A DNA stretch of 32,000 nt, from contig NZ_CP047960.1 of the NCBI RefSeq assembly GCF_014280195.1, positions 60,001 to 92,000 of the forward strand, read 5' to 3'. The translations under genes were made by a program, and so were the position numbers. Positions 8,798 through 32,000 of this stretch are shown here, one piece after another. The notes under the pieces are model-generated. The model saw only the letters and a list, made by a program, of their open reading frames with translations, did not search any database and was not told the origin of the DNA. The DNA is from Synechococcus sp. A15-24. Its GTDB lineage: Bacteria > Cyanobacteriota > Cyanobacteriia > PCC-6307 > Cyanobiaceae. Each line of letters starts with the position of its first letter. Within the stretch, counting starts at the first letter, position 1.

Positions 8798-9286
8798 ATG
8801 GCCACTTTTGAGGGATGTTTTTCCGATGCGTCAGGGCTGCGCATCGGCATCGTCGTGGCCCGGTTCAATGATCTGGTCACCGCCAAGCTGCTGAGCGGCT
8901 GCCTGGATTGCCTCAAACGTCATGGACTTGATGTGTCCGAGACCAGTGGTCAACTGGATGTGGCCTGGGTGCCGGGATCGTTTGAGCTACCGATCGTGGC
9001 GCAGCAGATGGCCCGCAGCGGTAAGTACCAGGTGCTGATCACCCTGGGCGCTGTGATCCGTGGCGACACCCCCCACTTCGATGTGGTGGTTGCTGAAGCC
9101 AGCAAGGGGATTGCGGCGGTGGCTCGGGATGCCGCGGTGCCTGTGATTTTTGGTGTGCTCACCACAGACACGATGCAGCAGGCGTTGGAGCGTGCAGGCA
9201 TCAAGAGCAACCTGGGCTGGAGCTACGGCTTGGAGGCCCTGGAGATGGGCAGCCTGATGCAAGGGCTGCCCACGCCGGTGGGTTGA
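8798..9286 (+). CDS. ribH: 6,7-dimethyl-8-ribityllumazine synthase
   Basis: [20 protein letters not shown]...VPGSFELP...[15 protein letters not shown] are the canonical RibH blocks. Confidence 0.9.
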
Positions 9287-9301: not shown

Positions 9302-9835
9302 GTGGGCTGGAAAGGCTGTCTGCTGCCGCTGCTGTTTCCTTTGAGCGTGCTGGTGATCGGCAGCTGGCGTCTTGCTGTGGACGATCACGCGTCAAAAAGC
9401 GCTGACCGTCAAAGCTCGGCTGTTATTGCACCGACCAAGCCGAATTATCAGCAGCCACCGCCAGGGACCTATCCCACCTGTGATGACAACCCTGCCTTAG
9501 GTGATGCGCTGTTGAGCGAGGGCCAGCGCCTTGGGATCTCAGTTCAAGCTGGCGCACCTGAGCTGCCTGGCAAAGACGCCACCTATAAGGCCGAACCCGG
9601 ACGTCTTGGCACGATCACGCTGAAGCAACGGCCGATGAGCCCGCTGGTGCGGTGCTTGTTGATCAGCCATGAATTCATCCATGTGCTGCAGCACCTACAA
9701 GGCAACTTGCGGGGTGTGCCACCGCTGGGCTGGAGTACGGGGCATCCCGATCCAATCCCGCAGGAGGCGGAGGCCTATGGACATCAACGGCGGGCGGGAT
9801 ATGTCTTGTCTCTGTTGCAAGCAACCTCGCCATAA
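9302..9835 (+). CDS. Hypothetical exported protein with HExxH motif (possible small zinc metallopeptidase)
   Basis: GTG start 16 nt after the ribH stop. The N-terminus is hydrophobic (WKGCLLPLLFPLSVLVIGSW). A single HEFIH motif (LLISHEFIHVLQH) is present. I recognise no other family signature. Confidence 0.45.
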   Translation: MGWKGCLLPLLFPLSVLVIGSWRLAVDDHASKSADRQSSAVIAPTKPNYQQPPPGTYPTCDDNPALGDALLSEGQRLGISVQAGAPELPGKDATYKAEPGRLGTITLKQRPMSPLVRCLLISHEFIHVLQHLQGNLRGVPPLGWSTGHPDPIPQEAEAYGHQRRAGYVLSLLQATSP

Positions 9836-9847
9836 AAAAAGCGAGGT
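9824..9847. terminator. 7-bp stem hairpin (ACCTCGC / GCGAGGT, A-rich loop) between convergent genes
   Basis: Read directly: acctcgc-cataaaaaaa-gcgaggt. It spans the stop codon of 9302..9835 and sits 5 nt from the end of 9852..10238. There is no U-tract on either strand, so terminator function is uncertain. Confidence 0.25.
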
Positions 9848-9851
9848 GCTA

Positions 9852-10238
9852 TCAGCTGAACACCTGTTGGTCACTGGTATCAAGGCCGAAGTCGCACTCC
9901 GTGTCGTCACCAAACCAAACCAAGGGAGGTACGGATGGCTCATCAGGTGGTTCGTTAAATCCCAGCAACTCCAGGGGTGAATCCAGGCCTTGGGCATCCA
10001 CGTTCAGGAAGCTGGGCTGATTGGATTCGTCTGTGCGTGCGCTTTGACTTGCGTTGTTGCCTTGATCCTCGAAGCTGACCATTGGTGATCCGCCTTGATA
10101 CACGCTCTTGGCGGGCGTTTGATCGATGACGAGGTGGTCACTATCGACATGGGCCCCAGTGCCGGTCCGTTGCCAGCCAATGTGGGTTTCGTGGGTGTGA
10201 TCAGTGGGATTGTCTGGCATGGGTTTCTCGGGAGTCAC
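9852..10238 (-). CDS. Hypothetical acidic, probably disordered protein
   Basis: 128-aa ORF rich in D/E/P/S/T with no recognisable motif. It overlaps the 3' end of the upstream DUF4177-like gene by 20 nt (ATG start at 10220) or 38 nt (start at 10238). GC content is intermediate. Confidence 0.4.
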   Translation of the reverse strand: MTPEKPMPDNPTDHTHETHIGWQRTGTGAHVDSDHLVIDQTPAKSVYQGGSPMVSFEDQGNNASQSARTDESNQPSFLNVDAQGLDSPLELLGFNEPPDEPSVPPLVWFGDDTECDFGLDTSDQQVFS

Positions 10239-10587
10239 TACCCATTGGCATAGCCATGGATTCCTCGAGAGTGCTTCGCAACGGTCGTTTAAAAATCATC
10301 AGAGGAAGATCTGCAACCTGTTGAACTTGGATGAGCTCCCAGCCGTCGCGGCCTAATTCGTTGAGGAAGTCACAAATCTGAGCTCGCCCGTTTGCGTTGT
10401 TGTAGTACTCAGGAAATTGGTTTCGTAAGGCTTCTGCACTCAATGAACCACCCAACCTTCGGCTGGCATCGTCAGGATTAGCAGGCGCTTGGGCAACCAT
10501 CTGAACGACTTTGTATTGCCAGATAATCGTGTCTTTGGTTTTTCCCCCAAAGAGTGTGCTCTTGAGCTTGCGAAGCCAACGTTTCAT
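10201..10587 (-). CDS. DUF4177-like small protein
   Basis: The WQYKVV ... FLNELGRDGWELIQV pattern resembles DUF4177 as I recall it (YEYKVV...LNELGxEGWELV). ATG start at 10587. Confidence 0.5.
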   Translation of the reverse strand: MKRWLRKLKSTLFGGKTKDTIIWQYKVVQMVAQAPANPDDASRRLGGSLSAEALRNQFPEYYNNANGRAQICDFLNELGRDGWELIQVQQVADLPLMIFKRPLRSTLEESMAMPMGSDSRETHARQSH

Positions 10588-10677: not shown

Positions 10678-13377
10678 TCATGCTGCCAATTGATCAAGGA
10701 TTTGAAGGGCGCGTCTGACGACCGGCTTGGGGACACCCGCAAGCCGTGCCGCTTCAATGCCGTAGCTGCGGCTGGCACCGCCGGCCTGCACCTGATGGAG
10801 GAACACCAGATCCTCGCCGGTTTCCTCCACCAGCACCTGAAAGTTGGCCACGTTGTCGCGTTCAGCGGCCAGATTGTTGAGCTCGTGGTAGTGGGTGGCA
10901 AACACCGTGCGGCAGCCCAGATCGCCGGCCAAGTGTTCGCTCACGGCCCAGGCGATGGAGAGGCCGTCGAACGTTGCCGTGCCTCGGCCAATTTCATCGA
11001 GCAGCACGAGGGAGCGATCACTGGCGTGGTGAAGGATGTTGGCGGTTTCCGCCATCTCCACCATGAAGGTGGACTGACCGGCCGCCAGATCATCCACAGC
11101 ACCCACGCGGGTGAAGATTCGATCGGCAATGCCAATGGTGGCGGAGCGGGCGGGCACCCAACTGCCGATTTGCGCCATCAGTTGGATGAGGCCGATCTGG
11201 CGCAGGTAGCAGCTCTTGCCACTGGCGTTGGGGCCGGTGAGCACCACCAGGTCGGTGCCATCACCGAGCTGCACATCATTGGCGATGAAGGTGGACTCCA
11301 CCAGCCGTTGCTCCACCACGGGGTGACGGCTGGCCTCCAGCTGCAAGACGCGGCTGTCGTTGATGGTGGGAGCGCAGTAGCCCCCTGTGGCAGCGACATC
11401 GGCCAAGCCCGTGAGCGCATCCAGCGCAGCGACGGCGCGAGCTGCCTGACGGATCGGAGCGGCCATGGCGCCAACCTGCTCACGCAGCTGGCAAAACAGC
11501 TCATATTCCCGCTGGCAGGCGCGAGCCCGCAGTTGGAAGATGCTGCCTTCCCGCTCTTTGAGATCCGGGGTGATGAACCGTTCCTCATTGGCCAGGGTCT
11601 GGCGGCGGATCCAGTGGTTCGGCACCGCCGTGGCCTTGGCTTTGCTCACCGCCAGGAAATAGCCGAAGGTGCGGTGGTGCTGCAGCTTCAGGGTGGCGAT
11701 GCCGCTGCGTTGTCGCTCCAGCTGCTCTTGATCGGCAAGCCAGGCGTCCTGATCATCCAGTTGGTTGCGCAACCCATCAAGGAGAGGGTCAACCCCGTCG
11801 TGGATCAGTCCGCCTTCACTGAGGCTCAGCGGTGGGGTCGCCAGCAGTTGGTGGCGGACGACGGCCGCCAGTTCCGCCAGGGCCGGTTGCGGTTGGGTGA
11901 GTGGCTCCAACCAGTCGGGTTCCTGTGCGATCTGACCGTTCAACTGGGCTGCCAACTGTGGCAACCGTTCGAGTCCATCCGCAATGGCGACGACATCGCG
12001 GGCCCCGGCATGGCCAGCTCCGGCACGACCGGACAGCCGCTCGAGATCACCCATCGGCCGCAGCAGCTTCCGGATCGTCAGCCGCAAGCTGCGTTGCTCC
12101 ACCAGCCGTGAGACCACGGCCTGGCGTTGCTGAATTGTGGTGAGGTCCATCAGCGGCGCTTCGATCCAGCGCCTTAAGCAGCGGCCGCCCATGGCGGTCA
12201 GGCAACGGTCAATCGCCCAAAGCAGGGAACCCTGCAGTTGCCCATCACGCTGCGTGGCAGTGAGCTCGAGGTTGCGGCGGGTCTGGAGATCAAGCACCAG
12301 GGCATCACCGCGTTGCTCGAGTGTTGGCACCTCGAGGGGAACGGAGCTGACCTCATCGAGGGGTTGGGTGTCGCGCAGGTAGGCCACCAAGCCCCCCAGG
12401 GCCCGCAGTGCGAACGGGGTGTCCGAAAGACCAAGGCCGTCGAGTGTCGCCAATTTGTAGTGGCGCAGCAGCATGGCTTCAGCGTCGGGGCGACTGAAGG
12501 GAGTGCTGGCGACGGGCGTCAGACGCCAGCCATCTGGGCACCAAGCTGGACTGGCTTCTGCTCCGCTCCACAGCAGTTCGGATGCCTGCAACTGTGCCAA
12601 GTACTGATGAAGGCTGTCGCTGCCTTGCCGTTGCAGCACGCGCACCTCACCGGTACTCACATCGGTGCTGGCCAGACCCCAGCGGAAGGGTTGTTCCCCC
12701 TGGGCTGATTCCACGACGACTGCCGCCAGCCAGTTGTTGCGGCGGGCGCTGAGCATGCCCTCCTCCAGCACGGTGCCGGGGGTCAGCACCCGGGTGATGT
12801 CCCGTTTGAGCAGGGCGCCCTTGGTGGGGGTGGTTTCGAGCTGGTCGCACAGAGCCACGCTGTAGCCCTGTTTGATCAGTTCGGTGCAGTAGCGCTCGGC
12901 GGCGTGGTGGGGGATGCCCGCCATCGGCACCCGGCCGATGGCCTTGCCGCCCTCTTTACCGGTAAGGGTGAGTTCCAGCACCCGCGAGAGCTCGATGGCG
13001 TCCTCGAAGAAGCACTCGAAGAAGTCCCCCAGGCGGTAGATCAGCACCCGCTCGGGATGGGCCGCTTTGAGTTCCACGTAGTGACGCAGCATCGGTGTCA
13101 GCTGCAGCGGATCCACCTGGCTGTGATGGGCCCAGGCGGGTTCGTCGCTGCTTGGTTCTGAATCGTTCGCAGCTGGAGCTTCGCTGCTGGCCTTGTTTGT
13201 CGTGGCCTGCCGCTGGCGGGGCCGGGCGGCGGCATCGGCGCCGAGCTCGTCGTCGCTGAGATCGTGGCTGGCGGCCTCAGGTTCGCTGGGGGTCGCAGAC
13301 GAGGCAGTTGACTCAGGGGCGCCGAATAAATTCCCTTGAAGAGCGTTGTCCTGAAGCTGGGAAACGGACCGCGGCAT
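10678..13377 (-). CDS. mutS: DNA mismatch repair protein MutS
   Basis: [29 protein letters not shown] is the mismatch-binding domain and [14 protein letters not shown] is the Walker A motif. An acidic/Ser-rich N-terminal extension of about 85 aa precedes them. I prefer ATG at 13377. The ORF track start is a GTG at 13386. Confidence 0.93.
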
Positions 13378-13430
13378 AGACTGCACTTTCGGTCTCGAAT
13401 CGTACCCAGCTTCTGGGGTTGTATCTGCCT
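13316..13430. repeat. Direct repeat copy A: mutS start region plus upstream spacer, attached to the intact mutS
   Basis: It aligns by eye with 14686-14799. Both copies share GTGCAGnnnATGCCGCG and the upstream block CGTACC(C/T)AGCTTCTGGG (13401-13418 versus 14771-14787). The encoded peptides are [22 protein letters not shown] versus MQPMPRCSSKPLYDALQGYLFG. Confidence 0.75.
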
Positions 13431-14685
13431 AAGCGCCCCAGACCAGTGGCTTAGAGATCACCTGACACGACGATATCGGGGAGCACGTCTAGGCCGTACC
13501 CCATAGGATGTGGCCCAGCTGAAGCACCGCCGCTTGCCGCGTCTGAGACCTATTGGAATATTGTTCTGAAATGTGCTGCAATTGGTTGAATATTTATTAA
13601 AAATTAAAAAGTGATTTTTTGGCAGCAATATATGACCGCCGAAAGTTTTTCAACTTCTAATCCCATCAATTCGCTTTTAGTTCGCGATATAGTTATGTAT
13701 TGGGGGGAGCTGTTCGGTGAGCTTACTTTGCCGTAAATGGCATGGGCAAACATAGTCTAAAAAAGAATACAATATTGTGGTTTATATATTTCAACATGTT
13801 AATTCAAATCAATTTCGGTGTTGGCTATCTTTAGTGCTGGTGGAAAAGGCTACTTAACATAGGCTGCGAACAAATTGCCGCCCATAATATTAGTGACTTT
13901 GTAGCCGCTGCTACTCAATAGGTGGTATTCCATAGACTCCTTATAATTATCAATTCCGAATCCTTGGCTAACCCATTCGATGCATACAAGTCTTGGGTTA
14001 TTCATCGATTTCAAAAATTCTGATAAGTCACTTAAATAATTCACTTGTTCTATGTCTATATTTAAAAATGCTGGACTGAAATTTGGGAGTAACGAAAGTA
14101 TTAAATTAGAAATCTCTGGGAGCGTCTTACACTCTATGTCTAACATATCCCTAAATTCAAACCCCCTCTCTACCCAGGTTCTTGCTACATTTTTATCAAA
14201 TGTGTTGATGGCGCCGGCCTTGAAACGAAAGAATTTAAGGTGCTTAAATTCTGAATTCACCTGGCTTGATTTGATTCCTAAATTAAAAAAAGTATCGGCC
14301 CTTCTGATGTTTTTCCAATGACTCTCCAAATCTGGATTAGCGTCAATAGCTACGCCGTTCCAGCCTGCTAGATTTAAAAGTTTAGTATTTGAGTAAAGTG
14401 TTTCATGGTAACAGCCTATGTCAAGATATGTTCCCTTAATATCTGATAATATGTCATTCCAAAAAAATTCTCGAATAATTTCATCTTCTCCATTCTGGCT
14501 AAAACCTATTTTTAAGAATTGTTCACTTAAAATAGAAGTATTGATTAATGGGCTGTTGATCCAATTTGGGTACATGTTGTCACGAAGGGTGGTTTGAATG
14601 CTTTGACTTTAATTCCATGCCCACAACTCTTTCTTTTTGAGTTGTCCTTGGGCTTATTGGTCGAAGTGGAGGTTTCTTTGTTTCC
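13431..14685. other. Small inserted cassette between the two mutS-5' repeat copies, mostly AT-rich, carrying one FkbM-type methyltransferase gene
   Basis: There is a visible composition shift. The interior at about 13560-14685 is AT-rich, whereas 13431-13560 is GC-rich with no recognisable coding content. The cassette is bounded by the diverged direct repeats. Confidence 0.65.
13850..14575 (-). CDS. FkbM-family (Methyltransf_21-like) SAM-dependent methyltransferase
   Basis: FSQNGEDEIIREFF...GTYLDIGCYHETLYSNTKLLNLAGWNGVAIDANP resembles the FkbM-family N-terminal and SAM-binding blocks. ATG at 14575, TAG at 13850-13852. Codon usage is AT-rich. Confidence 0.65.
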   Translation of the reverse strand: MYPNWINSPLINTSILSEQFLKIGFSQNGEDEIIREFFWNDILSDIKGTYLDIGCYHETLYSNTKLLNLAGWNGVAIDANPDLESHWKNIRRADTFFNLGIKSSQVNSEFKHLKFFRFKAGAINTFDKNVARTWVERGFEFRDMLDIECKTLPEISNLILSLLPNFSPAFLNIDIEQVNYLSDLSEFLKSMNNPRLVCIEWVSQGFGIDNYKESMEYHLLSSSGYKVTNIMGGNLFAAYVK

Positions 14686-14757
14686 GGCGCCCCCAAAGAG
14701 ATAGCCCTGCAGTGCGTCGTAAAGGGGTTTGGAAGAGCATCGCGGCATCGGCTGCAC
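14680..14757 (-). pseudogene. Orphan mutS 5' fragment (about the first 26 codons) upstream of the FkbM gene
   Basis: The 14545..14757 ORF begins MQPMPRCSSKPLYDALQGYLFGGAGN, paralleling the MutS N-terminus [26 protein letters not shown]. Similarity then dissolves into AT-rich sequence, and the ORF overlaps the FkbM start in another frame. Confidence 0.65.
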
Positions 14758-14799
14758 ACTCGATTTAGACCGTACCTAGCTTCTGGGTTGATATAGCCC
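14686..14799. repeat. Direct repeat copy B: mutS start region plus spacer, abutting the GNAT stop codon
   Basis: See copy A. My hand count over the first 22 codons gives about 65% nucleotide identity, so the copies are clearly diverged and not identical. Confidence 0.75.
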
Positions 14800-15255
14800 T
14801 CAACGGCGCAGCACCATCAGCTGTTGGGGGCTTGCATCCTGGAAGCCCAGTTGCCGGTAGAAGCCGGCGCTGTTGGTGGTCATTAAATAGACCCGTTCCA
14901 CCCCCACCACCGGCGGGGTGTGGAGGAGTTCTTCGATCACCCGGCGGCCGAGGCCATGGCCCTGCAGATCGCCGGCCACGACGATGTCCCAGAGCACGGC
15001 GCGGCTGAAGCCATCGGAGGTAGCCCGCCCGAAGCCCACCAGCCGCTTGCCGCGCCAGAGGCTCACCACTGTGCTGCTACCGGCGAGTAAGCGCCGCAGC
15101 TGGGAAAAGCTGCGGCCGCGGGCCCAGAAGGCGTGGCGATCAAACAGCCGTTGCAGCTTGAGCAGCGCCCGGCAGGGACGCAGATCCGGCCCGAGGCCAA
15201 GCCAGCGCAGGCCGGGGGCACCGGGGGCATGGTGGACCAGCCGGATCGGGGTCAC
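14800..15255 (-). CDS. GNAT-family N-acetyltransferase
   Basis: VVAGDLQGHGLGRRVIEELL is the Q/RxxGxG acetyl-CoA motif, followed by the C-terminal ...NSAGFYRQLGF. GTG start at 15255. GC-rich, core-like composition. Confidence 0.7.
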   Translation of the reverse strand: MTPIRLVHHAPGAPGLRWLGLGPDLRPCRALLKLQRLFDRHAFWARGRSFSQLRRLLAGSSTVVSLWRGKRLVGFGRATSDGFSRAVLWDIVVAGDLQGHGLGRRVIEELLHTPPVVGVERVYLMTTNSAGFYRQLGFQDASPQQLMVLRR

Positions 15256-15310: not shown

Positions 15311-16201
15311 TCAAGGAGCTAGGGCATCTTTCAGGAGTGCTTTGAGGTCCCAGTAGGGCGGTTTTTTGACGGGGATGGCTCGGAGTCTGGTTGGATTAGC
15401 CAAGATTTTTTGAACCAGTGTTTCCAGCTCCTCGATGGAGTTGGCCCAGAACAGATCGGGCCGGTTGACCAGTGGGCTGTTCTGTCCCAGCAGGCTGGGT
15501 TCGCCAAAGATCACCTGGGGCACGCCGGCGGCCATCACTTCAAACAGGCGGTGGTTGAGGTCATGGTTCAAGGGCACATTCAGCACCAAGGCGTGTTGGG
15601 CGTAAAGCCCCGCCGCTTCATTGGCGTTTGAGGTGGTGCAGTGCCGGAACGGCACCTGTTGTCTCTTGAGCAAGCCTTCCACCAGCTCACGGCGCCGGGG
15701 GTGGTGGGGGCCGAGGCTGCCCACGTGCAGCAGCTCAAGCCGTGGGGTTGGGCTGGGTGTGGCAGCTGGATAGCGAAAAAAGGATGGGGCTAAGCAGCGC
15801 ACCGGCATAGGCAAGCGCTGTTGCACGTCGTCCAGCAGCGCCGGATTGAAGGTGAGCAGCACTGCATCGTGTGGCTCAGCCGCGCAGTACTGCTGCAGGG
15901 TGCCGATCGGATCGGGGCCGTGATGGAGATCTCCGCAGACAAGGAGCCGTGGTCCAGGCCATTGGCGGATGCCCCGCATGGGGGCAGCGCGGAGCAGAAA
16001 TGGATCGGTGTACTGAAGCAGCACCCCTTTTGATGCCCATCCCCGGCGCTGTAGCGCGTTGCACAGCCCCGGCACCGACAGCTCGGTCAGCCGCAAACTC
16101 GCGGGCCCATCAGCAATCTGGGGCCCCACCTGAATCAACCCAGGCTGCTGCCAGAGCGGTTGGTAGGCCCCGTGATGGATCAGCAGGGTGGGTGTTCGCA
16201 T
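15311..16201 (-). CDS. GT-B-like glycosyltransferase (CgeB / Glyco_trans_1_2-like C-terminal domain)
   Basis: [28 protein letters not shown] resembles the Glyco_trans_1_2 block (LN...N.R.FE..A.G). ATG at 16201 ([11 protein letters not shown]). The gene itself is well supported by GC-rich codon usage. The function is tentative. Confidence 0.45.
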
Positions 16202-16253
16202 GGCATTGCTTGACCCAGCGATAATTGCGCTTCGTCGTTTGGTCTTGCAACTC

Positions 16254-18287
16254 ATGCCCGCCTACGACCTCACAGCTCCGTATTCCCCCAAGGGCGACCA
16301 GCCCACGGCGATCAAGCAGCTGGTGGCCGGTGTCAATGGCGGGCAGCGCTATCAGACCCTGCTGGGGGCGACGGGCACGGGCAAGACGTTCACGATGGCC
16401 AACGTTATCGCCCAGACCGGACGGCCGGCCCTGGTCTTGGCCCACAACAAAACCCTCGCGGCGCAGCTCTGCAACGAGCTGCGGGAGTTTTTCCCCGAGA
16501 ACGCCGTTGAGTACTTCATCTCCTATTACGACTACTACCAACCGGAGGCCTACGTTCCCGTCAGCGACACCTACATCGCCAAGACGGCGTCGATTAACGA
16601 GGAGATCGACATGTTGCGCCATTCAGCGACGCGCTCGCTGTTTGAACGGCGCGACGTGATCGTGGTGGCCTCGATCAGCTGCATCTACGGCCTGGGTATT
16701 CCGAGTGAATACCTCAAAGCGGCGGTGAAGTTTGAGGTAGGCGAGACCCTCAACATCCGCGGCCAGCTGCGAGAGCTGGTGAACAACCAGTACAGCCGCA
16801 ACGACACCGAGATTGCCCGGGGCCGCTTCCGCATGAAGGGGGACGTGCTGGAGATCGGCCCCGCCTATGAAGACCGGCTGGTGCGGATCGAGTTGTTCGG
16901 CGATGAGGTGGAGGCGATCCGCTACGTGGACCCCACCACTGGCGAGATCCTCCAGAGCCTGGAGGCGGTGAACATCTACCCGGCCAAGCACTTCGTGACG
17001 CCGAAAGACCGGCTGGATACGGCGATCAGTGCCATCCGCTCGGAGCTGCGGGAGCGGCTGGATCTGCTCAACGGCGAGGGCAAGTTGCTGGAGGCTCAGC
17101 GGCTGGAACAGCGCACCAAGTACGACCTGGAGATGCTGGGGCAGGTGGGCTATTGCAACGGGGTGGAGAACTACGCCCGCCATCTTGCTGGCCGCGAGGA
17201 GGGCACGCCGCCTGAGTGCCTGATCGATTACTTCCCCGATGATTGGCTGCTGATCGTGGACGAGAGCCACGTCACCTGCTCCCAATTGCAGGCGATGTAC
17301 AACGGCGACCAGGCTCGCAAGAAGGTGCTGATCGAGCATGGCTTTCGCCTGCCTAGTGCGGCTGACAATCGCCCCCTCAAAGGTGAAGAGTTCTGGGAAA
17401 AGGCGCGGCAAACGGTGTTTGTTTCCGCGACGCCTGGCAACTGGGAGCTAGAGGTGAGCGGCGGTGAGGTGGCGGAGCAGGTGATCCGCCCGACGGGGGT
17501 GCTTGATCCGGTGGTGGAGGTGCGGCCCACCAGCGGCCAGGTGGACGATTTGCTTGGAGAGATCCGCGATCGGGCGGCCAAGAATCAGCGGGTGCTGGTG
17601 ACCACCCTCACCAAGCGAATGGCGGAAGACCTCACCGATTACCTGGCGGAGAACGAGGTGCGGGTGCGCTATCTGCACTCGGAGATCCACTCGATCGAGC
17701 GGATCGAAATCATCCAGGACCTGCGCTTGGGAGAATACGACGTGTTGGTGGGGGTGAACCTGCTGCGGGAGGGTCTGGACTTACCGGAAGTGAGCCTGGT
17801 GGCGATCCTCGATGCCGATAAGGAAGGCTTCCTGCGGGCTGAGCGGTCGTTGATCCAGACCATCGGCCGGGCGGCGCGGCATGTGGAAGGGGTGGCGCTT
17901 CTGTATGCCGACAACATGACCGACTCCATGGCGAAGGCCATCTCAGAAACCGAACGACGTCGGGCGATTCAGCAGGCCCACAACAAGAAGAATGGAATTG
18001 TGCCTACTGCTGCGGGCAAGAAGGCCAGCAACTCGATCCTCAGCTTCCTGGAGCTGAGTCGCAAGCTGAAGCAGGAAGGGCCCGAAGCGGATCTTGTTCA
18101 GGTGGTGGGCAAAGCGGCCAAGGCTCTGGAAGATGATCCCGACGCCAGCCTGGCCCTGGAAGCACTGCCAGAGTTGATCGATCAGCTAGAGGCAAAGATG
18201 AAGGAGGCCGCCAAGAAGCTGGACTTCGAAGAGGCAGCGAACCTGCGGGATCGGGTTAAGCAGCTGCGTCAGAAAATGGCTGGATAG
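16254..18287 (+). CDS. uvrB: Excinuclease ABC subunit B
   Basis: [23 protein letters not shown], Walker [10 protein letters not shown], helicase motifs and the C-terminal UVR domain ([15 protein letters not shown]). ATG at 16254, TAG at 18285-18287. Confidence 0.95.
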
Positions 18288-18324
18288 CAATAGCATCATC
18301 ATAATTTGCCAATTCGTAGTACTT

Positions 18325-18347
18325 AATGGCTGAACTATTGAGCCATT
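18325..18347. terminator. 7-bp hairpin (AATGGCT / AGCCATT) between convergent uvrB and the GT10 gene
   Basis: Read directly: aatggct-gaactattg-agccatt. No clear U-tract follows, so this is only a candidate bidirectional terminator. Confidence 0.25.
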
Positions 18348-18417
18348 TAACGGAATTAAGATGGTATAGTCTCTTGTGAATTATAGCTAAAAGCATATTC
18401 TAATAACTAACAGTATG

Positions 18418-19473
18418 TCAACTGTAAATTTGCAAAATACTTCTTAGCGAATCAACTATCTTAAAACATAAATTATTGATTTGATTTTTTGAGGCAATAG
18501 ATGGCGACGAATAAATATCAAAAAATTTAGATCCAAATTCTTTTATCTCGAGCATACTTTTGCGGATGTCCATAGATGACGAAACATTAAATATCAAAGG
18601 ATGATTTGCAAATGGTTCGTTTGTTAAGCACCCAAAATAAAGTGATATGCATCCAGAAATTAAGGAGTGAGGTAATTTTTCTGTAACGTAGCCAGGATGA
18701 AAAGAATTTTCAAAGCATAAGCTGTATTTATAGTTTTTCAAAAGATCAAATTTATTACCCACCGGGTTAGTATGACTACCAAATCGATCGACTTGAAATC
18801 CAAAGTCTATCAGTTGATTTAGAAAATATTCTCTAAATGGTTCAGCATTATTTCCGATAAAAGCGACGGCGTCTTTTCGTTTTGAGAAATCAACAGACTG
18901 TTCTGAATGGAAAATTTTCTTTTGCAAAGGATTTCTATCATCATAGGACTTATTGAATAAATCAATCTCAAAAAGCCAGAGGGGCATATAAATAATACGA
19001 TTGCAACTTGTAAATTGATCAAATCCAGCAGAATAATCAAAATTAAGAAAATTGGGCCTAACATTCTCACCTAGAAATAAAATTTGCGTAGCATTACTGG
19101 GAAGCACAAGATATTGACCGTAGCAAGATGAGAAATTAATATCAGTATCAGGGGATGAAGGAATAATATTAATCTGGAGATTTTTATCAATTACAGCTAA
19201 TCTTATAAAATCTAAAATTTGATTGTCGATACAATTGAAGTCTGGCCAAAACCCCTCGAATGATATATTGATGCAATCTGTCTTGCGACTTAAAATATGC
19301 TTTAACCTTGATTTTTGACGGGTCCAATACTTATTTTGGCTAGAATTGCAATACTTGTCAATATTTGATATTGCATTCCTATAGTCATGCTTAATAAGCG
19401 AATATTCATGTTTAATCGAGTGGTCTTCTAAGCCAATTTGAGAACCTGGAGAATGCCATTGTCGTTGAAACAT
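18418..19473 (-). CDS. GT10-family alpha-1,3-fucosyltransferase-like glycosyltransferase
   Basis: YKYSLCFENSFHPGYVTEKLPHSLISGCISLYFG matches the GT10 signature (FENS....YxTEK). ATG at 19473 shares one base with the upstream TAA (TAATG). The ORF track start at 19485 is a TTG. Confidence 0.75.
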   Translation of the reverse strand: MFQRQWHSPGSQIGLEDHSIKHEYSLIKHDYRNAISNIDKYCNSSQNKYWTRQKSRLKHILSRKTDCINISFEGFWPDFNCIDNQILDFIRLAVIDKNLQINIIPSSPDTDINFSSCYGQYLVLPSNATQILFLGENVRPNFLNFDYSAGFDQFTSCNRIIYMPLWLFEIDLFNKSYDDRNPLQKKIFHSEQSVDFSKRKDAVAFIGNNAEPFREYFLNQLIDFGFQVDRFGSHTNPVGNKFDLLKNYKYSLCFENSFHPGYVTEKLPHSLISGCISLYFGCLTNEPFANHPLIFNVSSSMDIRKSMLEIKEFGSKFFDIYSSPSIASKNQINNLCFKIVDSLRSILQIYS

Positions 19474-20270
19474 TAGTCCCTCCAACTTTGATAGCTTACT
19501 GTTTCACTACCGTGAAGATATAAGGTTTTTTGCATCCAATAACAAGAAATTGGCATATTTGAATATTTATATAAAATGTACTGCAACTGCCAATCAATTG
19601 GGAAGCATAGAGGTAGATATTTTTGTACAATAATCTTAGCTAATCTCTTGGAGACGACATATCCCGCATTGGTTCTTGTTCTGGGCGGTAATACTTGTAC
19701 AAAAAGTTGAGGTTGAGATGAGTTATCATTTTTACAATGCAATCCTGCTCCCCCTGCAACATCTATATAATCAGGATTTTTTGCATCAATAAATTTTTTA
19801 ACTTCATTAAAGAGCTCAAGAGTATCTGGTTGCTCAAGGATGTCATCTTCAGCAATTAAACCATGACTTTCTTTGCCCTCTGCGATGTGTAAAAGTGCAC
19901 AATAGTGCTTTAAAAGAACACTAATTTCACCCGGCGACAAAATCCTTGATAAGAGCCATTTAGGCAAATTTAAAACATCTTCGTTGGATATATTGAGGAA
20001 AAAAGTCTTTGTTTTTTTGACATAGGTGGAGGAGTTGCTTATATAGTCTCCTTGTGAATTGGCATTGTCAATTAATATTGGGGATAATTCTAGTATTCGA
20101 GACTTCCAAAGTTCACAGTTTCCCAGAGTAAGGCCATCAGAAATTATTTCAGATGAATCAAATATCCTAATAATTTGAATAGACTCAGGATGAAAATTTT
20201 TTTGGAGGAGGCCTACAGCATTCGGCAATCTAGTCTGCGTTGCAGAACAAGTAATTAAAAAGGCCTTCAT
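19473..20270 (-). CDS. GT25-family (LOS/LPS beta-glycosyltransferase-like) protein
   Basis: The N-terminus MKAFLITCSATQTRL together with LSPGEISVLLKHYCALLHIAEGKESHGLIAEDDI parallels the GT25 blocks (MK..VI.L..S..R and LS.GE.GC.LSH...W...IlEDD). Confidence 0.55.
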   Translation of the reverse strand: MKAFLITCSATQTRLPNAVGLLQKNFHPESIQIIRIFDSSEIISDGLTLGNCELWKSRILELSPILIDNANSQGDYISNSSTYVKKTKTFFLNISNEDVLNLPKWLLSRILSPGEISVLLKHYCALLHIAEGKESHGLIAEDDILEQPDTLELFNEVKKFIDAKNPDYIDVAGGAGLHCKNDNSSQPQLFVQVLPPRTRTNAGYVVSKRLAKIIVQKYLPLCFPIDWQLQYILYKYSNMPISCYWMQKTLYLHGSETVSYQSWRD

Positions 20271-20500
20271 AAAAATTTTTCTGTAATTCTAGAACAAACC
20301 TCAAGCAGCAAATGCTAATGCAACTTTTTGTACAAATTGAAGCTTGAAATAATATTCGCAGGTAAGGCATGCATAGTTTATAACTTTTAAGTAAGGCTTC
20401 AGTACGGGGTTCAGGGAGTCTAAGATAGGGTTTGATGTATCGCGTCAAGAACGAGCCAAACACAAAATGCTAAAATTAGACGTATTTTGGACGTTTCAAA

Positions 20501-21478
20501 TTGGGCATCTGTTTCTTACATAAGCACAAAACGGGCGGATCAACACTTGAGAATACATTAAAACTTGATAGTTTGGGATGTAAGTACCTAAGTGAACTAG
20601 ATCCAAAGCTTGTAGAAAAAGATCTAATTATTGAGTTAAGAAAAAAACCAATTACGATAGTAAACGCATATGCAAGATCGCTGAAGCAAAGTCTCGGAAG
20701 TTATTGGCCTGAGTATAAAGAAACTACTACATTTTTATTTACAATAAGGAATCCAATTTCATTATTTGAAAGTGATTGGCAATATCAACATCAACTTGGA
20801 ACAAGTTCAAAATTTAAGAGTACTCACTTGCCACATGATCCTATGATAAAAAAGATATTTAGTGGAAATGATTGGCAAGAAATAATGTGTGATTATCTTG
20901 AACGCGATATTTCGAATCGTATTGATATAAATTCTTATTGTGAGCTGTTGGTTGGACAAAGGGAATCCGAAGAAGATGATATTTATAATACATTCTCATT
21001 GGGGATTGCAAAAGAGACAAGTGAACATTTTTGGATGCATAGTAATAGTTTCTACAGGCCGACTTTTTCATGTGGAGCATTTAACAACCAATGGAATACA
21101 ATAAGAACTCATTTTGGAGAAGATATTTTCGACATTAAACCCTTGCAAGGACAAAAGTCTCAAGTATATTTTTTGCCAACAGAATTAATAAACATAGCAT
21201 TGCCGTTTTATTTGCTGCACGATGCTAACCTTCGTCAGTTCTTTAAAAAAATGGATTTAAATAACCCTAGTCTAGAACTAATATCTGAAGCAATCGCAAG
21301 TCTTAGAAAGAATACAACGCGAAGTGAATTTAAAAGCGATAAAACAATGAAATTAAACCCTAAGAACAGATTAAGCTACTATAAATACTCAGATAAAGAC
21401 TACAAGATTTGGACTTCGTCGATTTCAATTTTAGCATCATTATTCAATCAATCAAACCATATCTTGAAAAGTCAGTGA
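20501..21478 (+). CDS. Sulfotransferase-like protein, paralogue 1
   Basis: FLHKHKTGGSTL is a PAPS 5'-phosphosulfate-binding loop of the HIPKTGG(T/S) type. FTIRNPISLFESDW is a 3'-phosphate RNPxxRxxS-type block. It is collinear with 27725..28690. The apparent start is TTG at 20501, and an upstream ATG at 20466 is out of frame. Confidence 0.6.
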   Translation: MGICFLHKHKTGGSTLENTLKLDSLGCKYLSELDPKLVEKDLIIELRKKPITIVNAYARSLKQSLGSYWPEYKETTTFLFTIRNPISLFESDWQYQHQLGTSSKFKSTHLPHDPMIKKIFSGNDWQEIMCDYLERDISNRIDINSYCELLVGQRESEEDDIYNTFSLGIAKETSEHFWMHSNSFYRPTFSCGAFNNQWNTIRTHFGEDIFDIKPLQGQKSQVYFLPTELINIALPFYLLHDANLRQFFKKMDLNNPSLELISEAIASLRKNTTRSEFKSDKTMKLNPKNRLSYYKYSDKDYKIWTSSISILASLFNQSNHILKSQ

Positions 21479-22550
21479 GACTGTAACTTTTATCATCGAT
21501 ATATTTAACGTTAGTTCCCCATGGCTTCCCGACTTGAATTTCATCATAGGGTATTTGATGCTTATTCAGCCATTTTATGAGTTGAGGCAAAGTGTACTTG
21601 TTAATTAAACCAATATTAGATTGAAATGAACGCATATTTCTGGAAGTAAAAAGTATGATATATGAACCCATTTTATCAGCCCTTTGAAGTGCTTCACAAT
21701 GTTCTTTGATAGGAATTGCATCAGAATAATTCTTAGTTTCTGTCAATGTACAAAGGGTTTCATCGATATCAACAACCAAAGTTTCTCTTTGAAAGCCAGT
21801 TATCGAACTGTTAGCAGAGATGAGTTCGTTCATATTTATGTCAAAGGTCTTACATAAGTCATAGGGGGTCCCAAATAATTTAGGCTTTTTGGCTTGTGAA
21901 AGCTGAACAATAAAGCCTTTCTGAATCATATAATTAAGAAAAGGTGCTATGTAGCGTTCGGAAAATCCTGAATGGTCTTCGTATTCTGAAAGAAGATTCT
22001 TAAAATCTAAAACGCTAGAAAAAGCATATGTACCAATAGAGCAAAAGTTAGAGATTCGTTTTTTTTCAACTATTTCAATGATAATATTTGAATCTTCACT
22101 TGATGGCTTTGCAAAAGACCAATGATCTCCTTCACCTATAAAACATGGTACTAAAGAAGAGATTGCAGAATTAGATTGTGAGAAATCTTTAAATAAATTA
22201 CCGGCTTCAAAATAAGTGTCGCAATTATGGACAACAAACTCATTTTGAATGTCAAAAGTATTGATTGTCAATAAAGTAGTATCCAACTGCCCAGGCGTGA
22301 GGTTATCAATTTCTAGCCAATAGATCTTGGCACCATTAACAATATGCCTTAAACTTTTTTCCAAATACTTTTTTACAAAATCACGCTTTAATGTCGTTAT
22401 AAAAATTTGATCGCTGGAAGTATAATTAAAAGATTCGACACTATATTCTAACAAGGTTTTCCCTTTTGCTTTTATTAACGGTTTTGGAGGCTTTATTCCC
22501 TTATTTTTAAATCTTGATCCTTGACCAGCTGCAGTAAAGATGTAATTCAT
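21444..22550 (-). CDS. Fusion protein: sugar-phosphate nucleotidyltransferase (N-terminal) plus HAD-type phosphatase (C-terminal)
   Basis: N-terminus: MNYIFTAAGQGSRF...KPLIKAKGKTLLEY carries the GxGxR and KPL NTase signature. C-terminus: VVDIDETLCT (DxDxT), ILFTSRN, VGKPWG and YIDDKS correspond to HAD motifs I-IV. ATG at 22550 lies 4 nt after the upstream stop. Confidence 0.7.
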   Translation of the reverse strand: MNYIFTAAGQGSRFKNKGIKPPKPLIKAKGKTLLEYSVESFNYTSSDQIFITTLKRDFVKKYLEKSLRHIVNGAKIYWLEIDNLTPGQLDTTLLTINTFDIQNEFVVHNCDTYFEAGNLFKDFSQSNSAISSLVPCFIGEGDHWSFAKPSSEDSNIIIEIVEKKRISNFCSIGTYAFSSVLDFKNLLSEYEDHSGFSERYIAPFLNYMIQKGFIVQLSQAKKPKLFGTPYDLCKTFDINMNELISANSSITGFQRETLVVDIDETLCTLTETKNYSDAIPIKEHCEALQRADKMGSYIILFTSRNMRSFQSNIGLINKYTLPQLIKWLNKHQIPYDEIQVGKPWGTNVKYIDDKSYSLTDFSRYGLID

Positions 22551-22554
22551 GGTT

Positions 22555-24204
22555 TTATTGAAGTAAGTCAATATTACCACGAAGGTAGTAAGTGCTTCCT
22601 ATTAGAGCAAAAGCTAAGCATCGAAGTTCATTCTCAGCATGCAAAGGAATCATGCTAAAGAATAGACTGGAAGTGATGACTCTAAGATCATCATGGTTTA
22701 TTACTTTATTGATAAAAATGTTGTTAAATATACTCTGAATGATCGCATGATTTTGCGGCGAATATATTTTAATATTAATACTGCTCTCATTGATATGTAT
22801 GGAAAATAAATTGTTCACGATTGAGTCGTACAAGCATGTGACAGAATGATTAATTTTACAGATGTCGTATCGTGGGTCAATATTACTTTGATTTCTATTG
22901 TCAATCCCACTCCCTCTTGGGTCAATAATTTTTACTGCCCCAAATATGGGGTCAACAAGAATATTATTAAAGCAAAAATCTCCATGTCCTTTATATAGAT
23001 CTATCGGCTTTGAGTAACTTACAAGTTCATTGGCTAAATTATGACAGATGTCGTTTATAGAGCATGGTAATTGAACACCGTTAATGTTCAGTATTTTATG
23101 CCAAGAATTTGAAAGTATACGATATTTATTGCCTGTAAAAATATTAGACATTGATATCAATCGATTGTTGAATTTTTCATGGTATAAGTGCTTAGGACTA
23201 TCAAAAGCGACTGGTTTCTTATAAAGGAGATCAAAGGCCCTTTTAAGAGCAAGACAAATTTGTTGCCATGAAGCAGGTCCAAATTTTTTGAAGAGAAAAA
23301 TCTCTGACAATGACGGGTATGGAATATATTCTAATTCTAGATAATACTTCCCATTAGCATCATCAAGGTAGTGATTGATAAGCTGTGGATAAAATTGTCT
23401 AAGCCCCTTATCAAGCTCATTGAAATAATTAGCCTCTCTCTGCAGTTTTTCGACATTTGATGAGCATTTAATGAGTGTATTGCTAGATTTTTTATATTCT
23501 ATATTATTAAATTGACGGGATGTGAAGACGTGCTTTGATGCTGTAGTGAATGTTGATTCATGTCCAATATCAATCCACTTTGAATAAATTATCTTTGCCG
23601 CGTTATTCTTGAATAAAGATTGAGCAAGTTGGTTGATATCGTTGTATAGGCTTTTGTCAAGACCAGCCATTGCGCATAAAAGATCTTTTCTATGAGAAAC
23701 TATAATACCGGTAAATGGGTGGCTAGGTTGAGAACTTATGGGTTCATTCTTTCCAATAAATTCAATGGCTAGATTGTCTTCGATTAGGGCAGACCAATTT
23801 TCTTTTGGGATCGATTCTTCGCCATAAACTATTGAAGGAATATCTAATTCATCGAATTTATATGTTGGAATTGTGGTGATTGGATTAACAATTATAATAT
23901 CACTCGACAAGTCACGTATCGTCCTCTCTAAAGTTTCTAATGGTGCTAAAGTTATGCCTATTGACTTAATATTGACCTTGCAAAAAGCCCTGAATGAGTG
24001 AAAAGGATGTTCATCATTTACTGCTAGTATTATATTAGAAATTCCTTTTTCAATATAAAAATTAGCAATTTTTTCAACTACAAGGCTATGACCTATATTC
24101 AACATAAATATTTCTTCATTTGACGAATTCATGTATGCAGGTGGATTTTTAATGGACCCTGCACCAAGAATTACTACGCATGATTTATGGAACAATTGAT
24201 CCAC
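22555..24204 (-). CDS. Fusion protein: degenerate NTase-like N-domain plus APH/choline-kinase-fold small-molecule kinase
   Basis: C-terminal half: LYKGHGDFCFNNILVD is the HGDxxxxN catalytic loop and VKIIDPRG the metal-binding Asp. N-terminal half: VVILGAGS... plus an alternating beta/alpha pattern resembles a GT-A/NTase fold, but the GxGxR signature is absent. GTG start at 24204. Confidence 0.6.
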   Translation of the reverse strand: MDQLFHKSCVVILGAGSIKNPPAYMNSSNEEIFMLNIGHSLVVEKIANFYIEKGISNIILAVNDEHPFHSFRAFCKVNIKSIGITLAPLETLERTIRDLSSDIIIVNPITTIPTYKFDELDIPSIVYGEESIPKENWSALIEDNLAIEFIGKNEPISSQPSHPFTGIIVSHRKDLLCAMAGLDKSLYNDINQLAQSLFKNNAAKIIYSKWIDIGHESTFTTASKHVFTSRQFNNIEYKKSSNTLIKCSSNVEKLQREANYFNELDKGLRQFYPQLINHYLDDANGKYYLELEYIPYPSLSEIFLFKKFGPASWQQICLALKRAFDLLYKKPVAFDSPKHLYHEKFNNRLISMSNIFTGNKYRILSNSWHKILNINGVQLPCSINDICHNLANELVSYSKPIDLYKGHGDFCFNNILVDPIFGAVKIIDPRGSGIDNRNQSNIDPRYDICKINHSVTCLYDSIVNNLFSIHINESSINIKIYSPQNHAIIQSIFNNIFINKVINHDDLRVITSSLFFSMIPLHAENELRCLAFALIGSTYYLRGNIDLLQ

Positions 24205-24209
24205 GAGTA

Positions 24210-24686
24210 TTAAAAGAGATCAATAAAGGAATTAAAAAAATTTTCATCACCCTCTTTTAGGTAATTTGTAAATCCGCAAGATAAGAAAAGATTCTTCGAT
24301 GCAATATTCTGTTTATATCCTTTAGCCCATATTCTTGCCGGTTTTCTGATAATTCTTGTTTGAGCATAGGTCAGCAATTTCTTGCCTAGCCCTTTCTTCC
24401 TATGAGCGGAGTGGATACATACACTTGGCTCAAAATTTGAGGTATAATTATTGTCCATCTCTATATTTTTTAGCCTAAAAAATCCTACGACTGCCCTGTA
24501 TCCCTTGGAATTAAGTTCACAAATTGAATACTCACTGATTCTTTGGCTTACATACTCAAAGTGATCTTCAGGACACGGTATTTCCTTTTTTTCAAACATC
24601 AATAAGTTATCCTGAGAGTATCTTAAATTATATATATCCCAAATATCTTTTAAACTTGCGTTCCTGACTCCATATGTAGTCCCCAT
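24210..24686 (-). CDS. GNAT-family acetyltransferase
   Basis: IHSAHRKKGLGKKLLTYA is the RxxGxG/A acetyl-CoA motif, followed by the C-terminal NIASKNLFLSCGF. ATG at 24686. The stop lies 5 nt before the kinase gene start. Confidence 0.65.
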   Translation of the reverse strand: MGTTYGVRNASLKDIWDIYNLRYSQDNLLMFEKKEIPCPEDHFEYVSQRISEYSICELNSKGYRAVVGFFRLKNIEMDNNYTSNFEPSVCIHSAHRKKGLGKKLLTYAQTRIIRKPARIWAKGYKQNIASKNLFLSCGFTNYLKEGDENFFNSFIDLF

Positions 24687-24723
24687 CAAATGATAAACTC
24701 ATTACATCGACAACCTATCATAA

Positions 24724-25728
24724 ATGAAGTGGGAGAGGCAACACGGAAGATATCCTCGAGATCCTAGGCTGGGTCACCGACCAGGTCTAAGCTATATTCC
24801 GGAAAATCAGGAAGATCTATTGAGAGATCTGTATACGACGTCTGATGGCTACGTATCGCTGACATCGTCGTCTGATGCATCTGGGTTATCCAAAGGTAAA
24901 TCAATAGTTATTTTAGGTGGTTCAACTAGTATGGGATTAGGTGCATCCAGTAATGAAAATACAATAGCTGCAATTCTTCAAAATCTCATGACTATTGATG
25001 GATATGAGCATACCGTTGTAAATGCTGCGTGTGCAAGCTATTGCAGCTGGCAAGAACTTATCAGGTTCGCACTTGAAATCTCTCACTTAAAGCCTGAAAT
25101 AGTAATTTCGTGCTCCGGCTACAATGACTTTATGCACTCGTCGTTAGGAGATAAGTATAGTGGTGAATGGGTGCGTAATCATGATCGCTCAATTGAGGAT
25201 CTAGCAGATTTGATAATAAATAGAGATAAGACTAGTAATTTTAGACACTTGTTTAATTCTCTCAAACGTTTCCCCTTGATCAATGCCATTATACGAGCTT
25301 GTTATAAGATTTTTAGCAGGAAAAACTATTCTGCAAAAGATCTCGTCTATGAAAAAGATAAATGGACCTTTTCTGCGCGACCTTGGGCGTCCGACAACTA
25401 TGTACATAATATGGTGCAAATAAACTCAATCGTCAATGGTTACGGTGGAAATTTTTTCACTTTCATACAACCACACCCAAATGATAATTTAAATTCAAAC
25501 AACCATGTCGGCGAAGAGGTAAGGAATATGTATGCCAAGTATCCTGATATGAGATCAGCTGAGCATGCTTTTTTTGATCGTTTGGCCTTTTTGATCAAAA
25601 GCCATGACTTTATTCATGAGTCTCCAATATTGCCAGCAGAATGTTTCGTTGATCGTGTTCACCTCAGTGATTTAGGCCAATTCCAAATGGCTTCATTCAT
25701 ATATGCTAAAATAAGAGAGTGTATATAA
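24724..25728 (+). CDS. SGNH/GDSL-like hydrolase or O-acyl-handling enzyme
   Basis: Block I IVILGGSTSMGLG, block III CSGYNDF and block V VDRVHLSDLG (DxxH). Confidence 0.6.
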   Translation: MKWERQHGRYPRDPRLGHRPGLSYIPENQEDLLRDLYTTSDGYVSLTSSSDASGLSKGKSIVILGGSTSMGLGASSNENTIAAILQNLMTIDGYEHTVVNAACASYCSWQELIRFALEISHLKPEIVISCSGYNDFMHSSLGDKYSGEWVRNHDRSIEDLADLIINRDKTSNFRHLFNSLKRFPLINAIIRACYKIFSRKNYSAKDLVYEKDKWTFSARPWASDNYVHNMVQINSIVNGYGGNFFTFIQPHPNDNLNSNNHVGEEVRNMYAKYPDMRSAEHAFFDRLAFLIKSHDFIHESPILPAECFVDRVHLSDLGQFQMASFIYAKIRECI

Positions 25729-25911
25729 GATTTTTAATTGCGCAATCCACGACTTAAGCCTTTTCACTCTTTAAACAGCCTTCGATATGGGTGGCGATAT
25801 TTTCTCGTTTTCCAAACCGAAAAATGCTTTGCAATAGTGATGACTATTTTTTGGAATAATCGAAAATCGTCTAATTCACATCCTAATCAGTTCAACTACA
25901 CAATATATTAA

Positions 25912-27711: not shown

Positions 27712-27724
27712 TCCTGAACATTAG

Positions 27725-28690: not shown

Positions 28691-28699
28691 ATTCTTCAC

Positions 28700-29815: not shown

Positions 29816-29837
29816 ATTAGAACGGCTTATTATCTCT

Positions 29838-31493: not shown

Positions 31494-31544
31494 GGCTTTC
31501 TTCTTCTATGATAGAATTATATTAACATAAATCTCATCTGCGTT

Positions 31545-32000
31545 ATGCTTGGTGACTGCAGCTCCTATCAAAATAAAGGTTTTTTGGTTGAATTGAATGC
31601 GCTCTCTAGCCATGAGTTAGATATTATACAACGATTTATTGTACTTAATATTCAATCATTATTTAAAGAGTGTGCTGTACCGTATGAATCTCCACTTGAA
31701 TGGCCAAGTCTTATCAATCCCTCTAACCGAAAGTATTGGTTCCACAACCACATTTCTTCTAAGAGTGTACGACGATTCACGGCTGAGCAGGTTTCCAAAA
31801 TTCTTAAATTTACCATTTTTTCTAGACTTCGTGAGCTTCTCGGTGAATTTGTTGTCTCAGATGAGGAGTTAATTGGTTATCCCGATGTCTATTGGAGATT
31901 TGTACGACCTTACGAAGAAGGTGATATTGGCCCACTTCACTGCGATTCGTGGTTTTGGGATTTAAATCCTTCATGGAATCATAACTCAGACTTTAAAAAG
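31545..32000 (+). CDS. PhyH-like Fe(II)/2-oxoglutarate dioxygenase, N-terminal part (runs off the window; absent from the ORF track)
   Basis: Hand translation of the frame with codon starts divisible by 3: a TAG at 31512 is followed by ATG at 31545, and the frame is open to 32000. It reads MLGDCSSYQNKGFLVELNALSSHELDIIQRF...YPDVYWRFVRPYEEGDIGPLHCDSWFWDLNP. The WR.VRP....D..PLH.D block is the HxD iron site typical of PhyH-type enzymes. Confidence 0.55.
   Translation, partial: MLGDCSSYQNKGFLVELNALSSHELDIIQRFIVLNIQSLFKECAVPYESPLEWPSLINPSNRKYWFHNHISSKSVRRFTAEQVSKILKFTIFSRLRELLGEFVVSDEELIGYPDVYWRFVRPYEEGDIGPLHCDSWFWDLNPSWNHNSDFKK

Follow-up and report, generated by a model that had tools for sequence, protein, structure and literature searches.

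How did an AT-rich gene come to lie between two core genes of a marine Synechococcus, with a second, damaged copy of the start of one of them on its far side? The question is raised by a 32,000-nucleotide (nt) stretch of Synechococcus sp. A15-24 (assembly GCF_014280195.1, contig NZ_CP047960.1, positions 60,001 to 92,000 of the forward strand; hereafter the window), in which a 241-codon gene, cass241, stands between the mismatch-repair gene mutS and a gene for a GNAT acetyltransferase. Around cass241 the order is whole GNAT, spacer and mutS' stub, then the cassette, then GNAT' stub, spacer and whole mutS, so that both core genes flanking the cassette are intact. The locus is probably an old insertion-duplication scar around a flexible gene, found in several marine Synechococcus lineages. 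The window has a GC content of 60-68% and a gene set of ribH, mutS, GNAT, GT314 and uvrB, identified from its list of open reading frames (ORFs) and from Pfam; the features are as follows, with amino acids abbreviated as aa and loci used for comparison given as L numbers.

10678..13377, minus strand: mutS, complete; a 902-aa ORF is listed to 13386, and the product aligns end to end with relatives at 84% aa identity.
13378..13428, minus strand: spacer copy A, the native mutS leader, with the hairpin CCCAG-AAG-CTGGG at 13417-13405 and a -10-like TACGAT at 13404-13399.
13429..13590, minus strand: GNAT', a 5'-truncated pseudogene remnant and the right-hand copy, from pairwise and multiple alignment.
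13591..13849, minus strand: cassette tail, AT-rich and non-coding, GC 0.35-0.40.
13850..14575, minus strand: cass241, the cassette gene, 241 aa, with a predicted class I S-adenosylmethionine (SAM)-methyltransferase fold (AlphaFold2, Foldseek).
14576..14644, minus strand: cassette leader with a TAnnnT element, TAAAGT, at 14611-14606, a putative promoter.
14645..14748, minus strand: orphan mutS' stub, about the first 35-37 codons, from alignments; it lies within a 70-aa ORF at 14545-14757.
14749..14799, minus strand: spacer copy B, with an imperfect hairpin and TACGGT, from the direct-repeat listing and alignment.
14800..15255, minus strand: GNAT acetyltransferase, complete and the left-hand copy (PF00583, E=1e-11; 95% aa identity to L001 and L035).
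15311..16255, minus strand: GT314, glycosyltransferase-like (PF13524, Glyco_trans_1_2-like).
8798-9286, plus strand: ribH (ORF list, Pfam).
16188-18287, plus strand: uvrB (ORF list, Pfam).

The initial annotation had described a direct repeat of the mutS start region, about 115 bp long and about two-thirds identical by hand count, and had proposed a pairwise alignment of the two copies. A local alignment of 13300-13440 with 14670-14810 gave 88/132 identical positions (67%) and a score of 38, far above the background from 2000 dinucleotide shuffles (8.3 +/- 1.3, maximum 15; z=23). The two encoded peptides, including MQPMPRCSSKPLYDALQGYLFG, are both in the ORF list, GTGCAGnnnATGCCGCG is present in both copies, and the block CGTACC(C/T)AGCTTCTGGG lies upstream of both, at 13401-13417 and 14771-14787. 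The DNA between the copies is AT-rich, as had been said, its GC falling to 0.33-0.40 against 0.62-0.70 in the flanks.

The repeat is thus real, but 115 bp is too small an estimate, as part of GNAT is duplicated as well. Positions 13547-13433 are a remnant of the GNAT gene, identical at 84/114 positions (74%) to GNAT 15060-14943, codons ~65-104 (z=21). Past an internal deletion of ~140-150 nt, the remnant reaches a relic of the GNAT stop codon, TAG at 13431-13429, and then the spacer; in a multiple alignment, weak homology can be followed back to about codon 50 (13590). The interval that had been called 1.25 kb of AT-rich DNA therefore includes ~120 nt of GC-rich GNAT sequence. On the other side, the orphan mutS' extends to about codon 37, where its CAATAAGCCCAAGG aligns with CAGCGAACCTGAGG of mutS. 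The repeats accordingly lie at 13590/13547-13270 and 15108-14645, and with GNAT' reaching to about codon 50 and mutS' to about codon 37, the original duplicated unit comes to ~465 nt. The two copies are truncated in a complementary manner: the left one holds the whole of GNAT and ~37 codons of mutS', the right one a 5'-truncated GNAT' and the whole of mutS. Such complementary truncations are the signature of an insertion-duplication.

A further detail concerns the deletion inside GNAT', across which two short strings of similar sequence, GGCCTCGGCCGC and GGTGCTGCGCCG, appear to have been joined (13433-13450 against 14943-14960 and 14803-14815). This suggests a deletion between microhomologies.

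The initial annotation had predicted relatives with a single junction and no cassette, and they were found. The best genome matches to the window are marine Synechococcus (MutS 84% aa identity to L001, L002 and L035; UvrB 96.6% to L001). L001 and L003 represent the empty site: uvrB, GNAT, a spacer of ~47 nt and mutS occur once each, with neither the cassette nor GT314, and the segment that is duplicated in the window is single-copy. Two other relatives carry different DNA at this position. L035 has an unrelated 3.1-kb insert in the GNAT-mutS spacer (L035 2846-6000), without duplication, whose products are a large protein ending in a GNAT domain and a sialic-acid-type synthase of the NeuB family. 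In L002, four other genes lie 5' of mutS (L002 1-5980), namely those for an aldehyde dehydrogenase, an Asn-synthase-like protein and two unknowns. Both keep the sequence from GGTACGAT onward, including the mutS leader. With different inserts in L035, L002 and the window, the GNAT-mutS spacer is therefore a recurrent insertion point, a hot spot used mostly by sugar-modification genes.

The same composite occurs elsewhere. Genomic context could be read for four close cass241 homologues (62-71% identity), all on metagenomic contigs. All four have the left junction, and three (L082, L178 and L179) have the full two-copy layout with the same complementary truncation.

L082: uvrB, GT314, GNAT, spacer, decayed mutS', cass241, GNAT' codons 50-150, and an L001-like spacer at the contig end.
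L179: end of GT314, a 151-aa GNAT, decayed mutS', cass241, a 69-aa GNAT' (codons ~70-151), spacer and mutS N-terminus.
L178: end of GNAT, spacer, mutS' without an ATG and with a stop, cass241, GNAT' with internal deletions, spacer and mutS.
L081: an apparently broken GNAT, spacer, mutS' with the start region deleted, cass241, and then an ORF177 homologue, ribH, psbZ (Pfam Ycf9) and the real mutS.

The left joint is common to all five loci, with CAATAAGCCCA derived from mutS CAGCGAACCTGAGG; the cassette proteins joined to it are just 62-71% identical. L081 has only the left arm; its gene order, ribH-psbZ-mutS, is the usual one in other clades of picocyanobacteria, and L004 and L051 have the nearest ribH and mutS. 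Its GNAT piece, 81.5% identical at the nt level to the window GNAT, is followed by the mutS' stub. The presence of these two pieces amid genes of the L004/L051 type points to a transfer of the left arm and cassette into a clade in which GNAT and mutS lie apart.

The age of the event can be read from the stubs. Functional GNAT copies are 83-91% identical to each other, while a given GNAT' matches the functional copies at 75-83% and the other GNAT' copies at only 61-76%. Derived states were scored at columns where the functional copies are unanimous. In GNAT', 94 such states are unique to one copy and nine are common to two; in the five mutS' stubs, 59 are unique, 14 common to two and nine common to three to five. 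The redundant stubs are long-branched and do not cluster together. Changes from GC to AT outnumber those from AT to GC, at 77:13 for the GNAT part and 65:28 for the part from mutS. The shared left joint, together with nine derived states in at least three of the five orphan stubs, indicates one origin, and the shared joint together with the lineage-specific GC-to-AT changes means that the drift of the orphan towards AT-rich, Lys-rich codons is in-place pseudogene decay after one old event. The 5' end of the functional mutS of L179 is 87.6% identical to that of the cassette-free L001, but the L179 orphan stub only ~46%, from which it follows that the duplication is much older than the split between L179 and L001. 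Presence or absence of the cassette within the L179-L001 clade is a matter of whole-locus replacement by recombination and not of fresh insertion.

The course of events that we favour would begin in a genome ordered uvrB, GNAT, mutS and ancestral to several lineages of marine Synechococcus. An AT-rich methyltransferase-like gene from the pool of cell-surface glycan islands would have entered the GNAT-mutS junction, and the ~465 nt between about codon 50 of GNAT and about codon 37 of mutS would have been duplicated, with neither gene broken. This may have happened by single-crossover (Campbell-type) integration of a circular DNA carrying the junction segment, or by a tandem duplication in which foreign DNA was caught at the new joint. 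In each lineage the redundant stubs would then have decayed on their own, with mutation biased from GC to AT. Homologous recombination in the core genes on either side would have exchanged or replaced the composite, now patchily distributed, which at least once may have entered a clade of different gene order. The insert contains no integrase or transposase in the ORF list, and ARAGORN found no tRNA in the 32 kb. A phage vector was also considered and rejected, as a scan of viral_contigs gave only relatives at <=31% identity.

Several points weigh against this account. Three of the four supporting loci are short metagenome contigs, and L082 and L179 have a coverage of ~2.4-2.8x; assembly errors may account for some of their frameshifts. 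The arms, at 40-68% identity, are saturated as well as short, and the phylogenetic statements rest on counts of shared and unique states rather than a robust tree. Presence and absence were compared across other species, the nearest genomes being ~91% identical to the window at the nt level in GNAT; the window's own species is outside the GTDB representatives compared, among which the best mutS match is 84% aa. No circular intermediate or donor was seen, and other routes lead to the same topology, whether homology-facilitated illegitimate recombination restoring a disrupted mutS or a multi-step rearrangement of an ancestral GT314-cass241 module.

The initial annotation had rightly taken the locus for a recombination scar and not a target-site duplication, and had attributed it to a donor that carried the cassette beside its own, lower-GC mutS, the orphan stub being a piece of that donor's gene. 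Some observations agree with an imported unit: the composite and its left arm do pass jointly from one lineage to another, as in L081; the left GNAT of L179, whose mutS 5' end is so close to that of L001, is no nearer to L001 than the window's is, which suggests mosaicism; and the window may have received the whole composite from another Synechococcus lineage. Nevertheless, the origin of the stub itself in a low-GC donor is unlikely. The stubs have each diverged heavily from every functional copy, and the AT enrichment of the orphan consists mostly of lineage-specific GC-to-AT changes; derived states, examined as a sign of acquisition from a low-GC donor including the mutS 5' end, are mostly unique to each lineage. 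Moreover, the orphans look like the mutS starts of Synechococcus in this clade, ACGACGCACTGCAGGGC for instance fitting the L001/L002 consensus better than the window's own mutS does, and no low-GC mutS donor or foreign match was found. Horizontal replacement of the window mutS, as might be read from its 84% identity against 96.6% for uvrB, was likewise rejected, since mutS evolves 3.5-9x faster than uvrB in every pair (divergence ratios of 4.5 for window-L001, 3.5 for L003-L001 and 9 for L001-L035).

A second alternative is that the cassette first entered mutS itself at about codon 37, producing a mutator, and that a GNAT'-spacer-mutS fragment from a relative later restored the gene. The rescue would be a case of homology-facilitated illegitimate recombination, with mutS or the DNA beyond it as the site of the homologous crossover and the cassette tail as that of the illegitimate joint. 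The final topology is identical, and the left arm does run on collinearly from GNAT to an end within the coding sequence of mutS. That mismatch-repair genes are lost and later reacquired was reportedly proposed for enterobacteria by Denamur et al. in 2000. However, the window mutS has not diverged more than uvrB, GNAT and ribH would lead one to expect, and two rare events are called for where Campbell-type integration needs one. At this age nothing discriminates between the two, and we regard disruption followed by rescue as quite improbable. Related to it is the speculative, and in our judgement very doubtful, idea that the composite is an integrase-free islet with its own homology arms, a natural knock-in unit passed among Synechococcus clades, whose origin may be a mutS disruption and re-import. 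If such a disruption and re-import did take place, an abundant marine phototroph once went through a short-lived mutator and hyper-recombination phase, of which the scar is the record.

The remaining alternative concerns function, and bears on the statement of the initial annotation that the duplication keeps a start region and leader in front of both mutS and the cassette. The mutS gene most likely starts at ATG 13377 and not at the listed GTG 13386, because relatives lack the GTG. The TACGAT located 21 nt upstream of this ATG is exact in 26/81 picocyanobacterial loci, with TAnnnT variants in others and in both gene orders, and is probably the mutS -10 box. Ahead of mutS, ~170 nt of native-type upstream context and the TACGAT box are retained. 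Any effect of the insertion on mutS expression would, judging from the sequence, be limited to lost read-through from GNAT.

Ahead of the cassette, a start region and leader do lie literally in place in the window, but the ATG, the frame and the TACGNT box are not conserved in the other carriers. The orphan ATG is deleted in L081 and mutated in L178, an early stop occurs in L082, L179 is strongly decayed, and the copied box is gone in L082, L178 and L179. In contrast, a separate TAnnnT element (TAAAGT, TATAAT, TAGAAT or TAAGGT) is kept ~30-38 nt upstream of the cass241 ATG in 5/5 loci (by hand count, 30 nt for the window TAAAGT and 33-38 nt in the other four). With this element kept and the orphan box and start unconserved, cass241 is most likely driven by its own promoter. 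That the duplicated start region is itself functional, as a copy of the mutS promoter driving cass241 or as the source of the 70-aa peptide, is therefore hardly credible, even though the window orphan keeps TACGGT, GTGCAG...ATGCCGCG and an open 70-codon frame overlapping the cass241 start.

A consensus promoter and terminator scan found sites no more numerous than in shuffles; it flagged the CCCAG...CTGGG hairpin on the plus strand, opposite to GNAT and mutS, and this hairpin is inconsistently kept in relatives. An Rfam scan of the region for structured RNA returned solely a chance miRNA match (E=0.99). The cassette tail, in particular, has no Rfam match and is little conserved between the window, L081 and L082. 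Loci ordered ribH-psbZ-mutS (L004, L006-L009, L012, L015, L018-L022, L034 and others) have in common a conserved CTTCACAnnTTGTGG-like motif, ~30-60 nt 5' of the TACGAT box, which the window clade, with its mutS downstream of GNAT, lacks.

The cassette gene itself, the sole ORF of more than 100 aa within the insert, had been called an FkbM-type methyltransferase. The methyltransferase part of that label fares well. An AlphaFold2 model of cass241 (predicted local distance difference test, pLDDT, 88.6; predicted template modelling score, pTM, 0.85) retrieved 53 PDB matches at E<=1e-3 with Foldseek, the best of them COMT-like enzymes with a template modelling (TM) score of ~0.5. The PDB matches listed are SAM-dependent methyltransferases, mostly COMT-like O-methyltransferases, and the residues D52-x-G54 and D78 are invariant in the cass241 family. 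A class I SAM-dependent methyltransferase fold is thus predicted, as in FkbM proteins (PF05050). In contrast, the FkbM part is weakly supported. The window protein has no Pfam match at E<=0.01 and no NCBIfam match at E<=0.1; scanned to E<=1 it retrieves just a sub-threshold Methyltransf_23 match (E=0.03) and nothing from PF05050, which places it outside the gathering-threshold membership of that family. PF05050 (FkbM, Methyltransf_21) weakly matches 16/35 family members, the best at E=6e-5, and some distant homologues carry the domain. The protein is therefore distantly related to the FkbM family and stands in a separate family of ~240 aa from picocyanobacterial islands, for which no source names a function. 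"FkbM-type" overstates this evidence, and "SAM-methyltransferase-like" is the safe label. A PDB sequence search with the family profile gave nothing useful, exact-protein look-ups of GNAT, cass241 and P0028 returned no record, and a literature search found no account of the locus.

The 60-odd homologues of cass241 lie mostly on short marine or lake metagenome contigs, and most are without a name in any source, a few being called "hypothetical protein". In distant picocyanobacteria the homologue adjoins GT314 homologues, uvrB, GT10 fucosyltransferases and sulfatases. GT314, which has no NCBIfam match, accompanies cass241 in the window, L082 and L179 and adjoins it in the distant contigs L089 and L094, which suggests that the two are a functional pair now split by GNAT. 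L001, L003 and L035 lack GT314; in the window it has been inserted cleanly into the uvrB-GNAT spacer, and no flanking duplication was found around it. Directly 3' of uvrB lies an island of more than 13.7 kb with 32-38% GC (window 18300-32000), whose genes include those for a GT10 fucosyltransferase, an NTP-transferase, a carbamoyltransferase, a sulfotransferase and a GDSL-like protein; cass241 homologues in L083 and L180 adjoin the same kinds of gene. From the neighbourhoods of the homologues and the content of this island, the cassette belongs to the gene pool of cell-surface glycan modification.

A separate observation was made on the other side of mutS. Between ribH and mutS (window 9302-10587) there are three ORFs of 177, 128 and 128 aa with a GC of ~0.52-0.58, where L001 has 14 nt. 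The ORF of 177 aa adjoins ribH in L081 too, and its homologues in the low-light (LL)-Prochlorococcus L007 and L022 lie near uvrB and far from ribH. One of the 128-aa ORFs has weak DUF4177 and Sp36-family matches.

The locus can be set beside three known kinds of insertion. The repeats of a transposon or insertion-sequence target-site duplication also flank inserted DNA directly, but they are typically 2-14 bp long and identical, while the window repeat, at ~465 nt and 67-74% identity, is tens of times longer and includes gene fragments. The window insert has no transposase, and no terminal inverted repeats were noted among the repeat pairs listed. Closer in content are the tycheposons and other tRNA-flanked, integrase-mediated islands of picocyanobacteria (bioRxiv 10.1101/2020.12.28.424599). 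As in those, low-GC flexible genes stand beside core genes of a marine picocyanobacterium, a partial duplicate of the target gene lies at one end, and the content varies, as the other inserts at this site in L035 and L002 illustrate. However, the window insert lacks a tRNA, an integrase and a short conserved att repeat, and its duplicated segment covers ~465 nt over two protein genes.

The closest likeness is to Campbell-type insertion-duplication, the product of integrating a circular DNA with an internal fragment of the chromosome. In both, the insert lies between direct repeats of a single contiguous stretch of chromosome; the left copy comprises the whole upstream gene and a 3'-truncated downstream gene, and the right copy the reverse, a 5'-truncated upstream and a whole downstream gene; and both genes stay functional as the fragment spans the intergenic region. 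The window differs in that its example is natural and ancient, with repeats decayed to 67-74% identity, and in that the insert carries no vector, replication or integrase functions; a circular intermediate is hypothetical. What the comparison offers is a well-resolved natural example of an integrase-free flexible gene entering a picocyanobacterial genome between two core genes and damaging neither; its scar can endure and accompany the gene from clade to clade. The stubs, moreover, decay free of selection and record, within the genome itself, the bias of mutation, which runs strongly from GC to AT although the genomes have 60-65% GC; this is relevant to the question of why island genes remain AT-rich. 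This is a known kind of event within known picocyanobacterial island biology, and it leaves current views of these islands standing.

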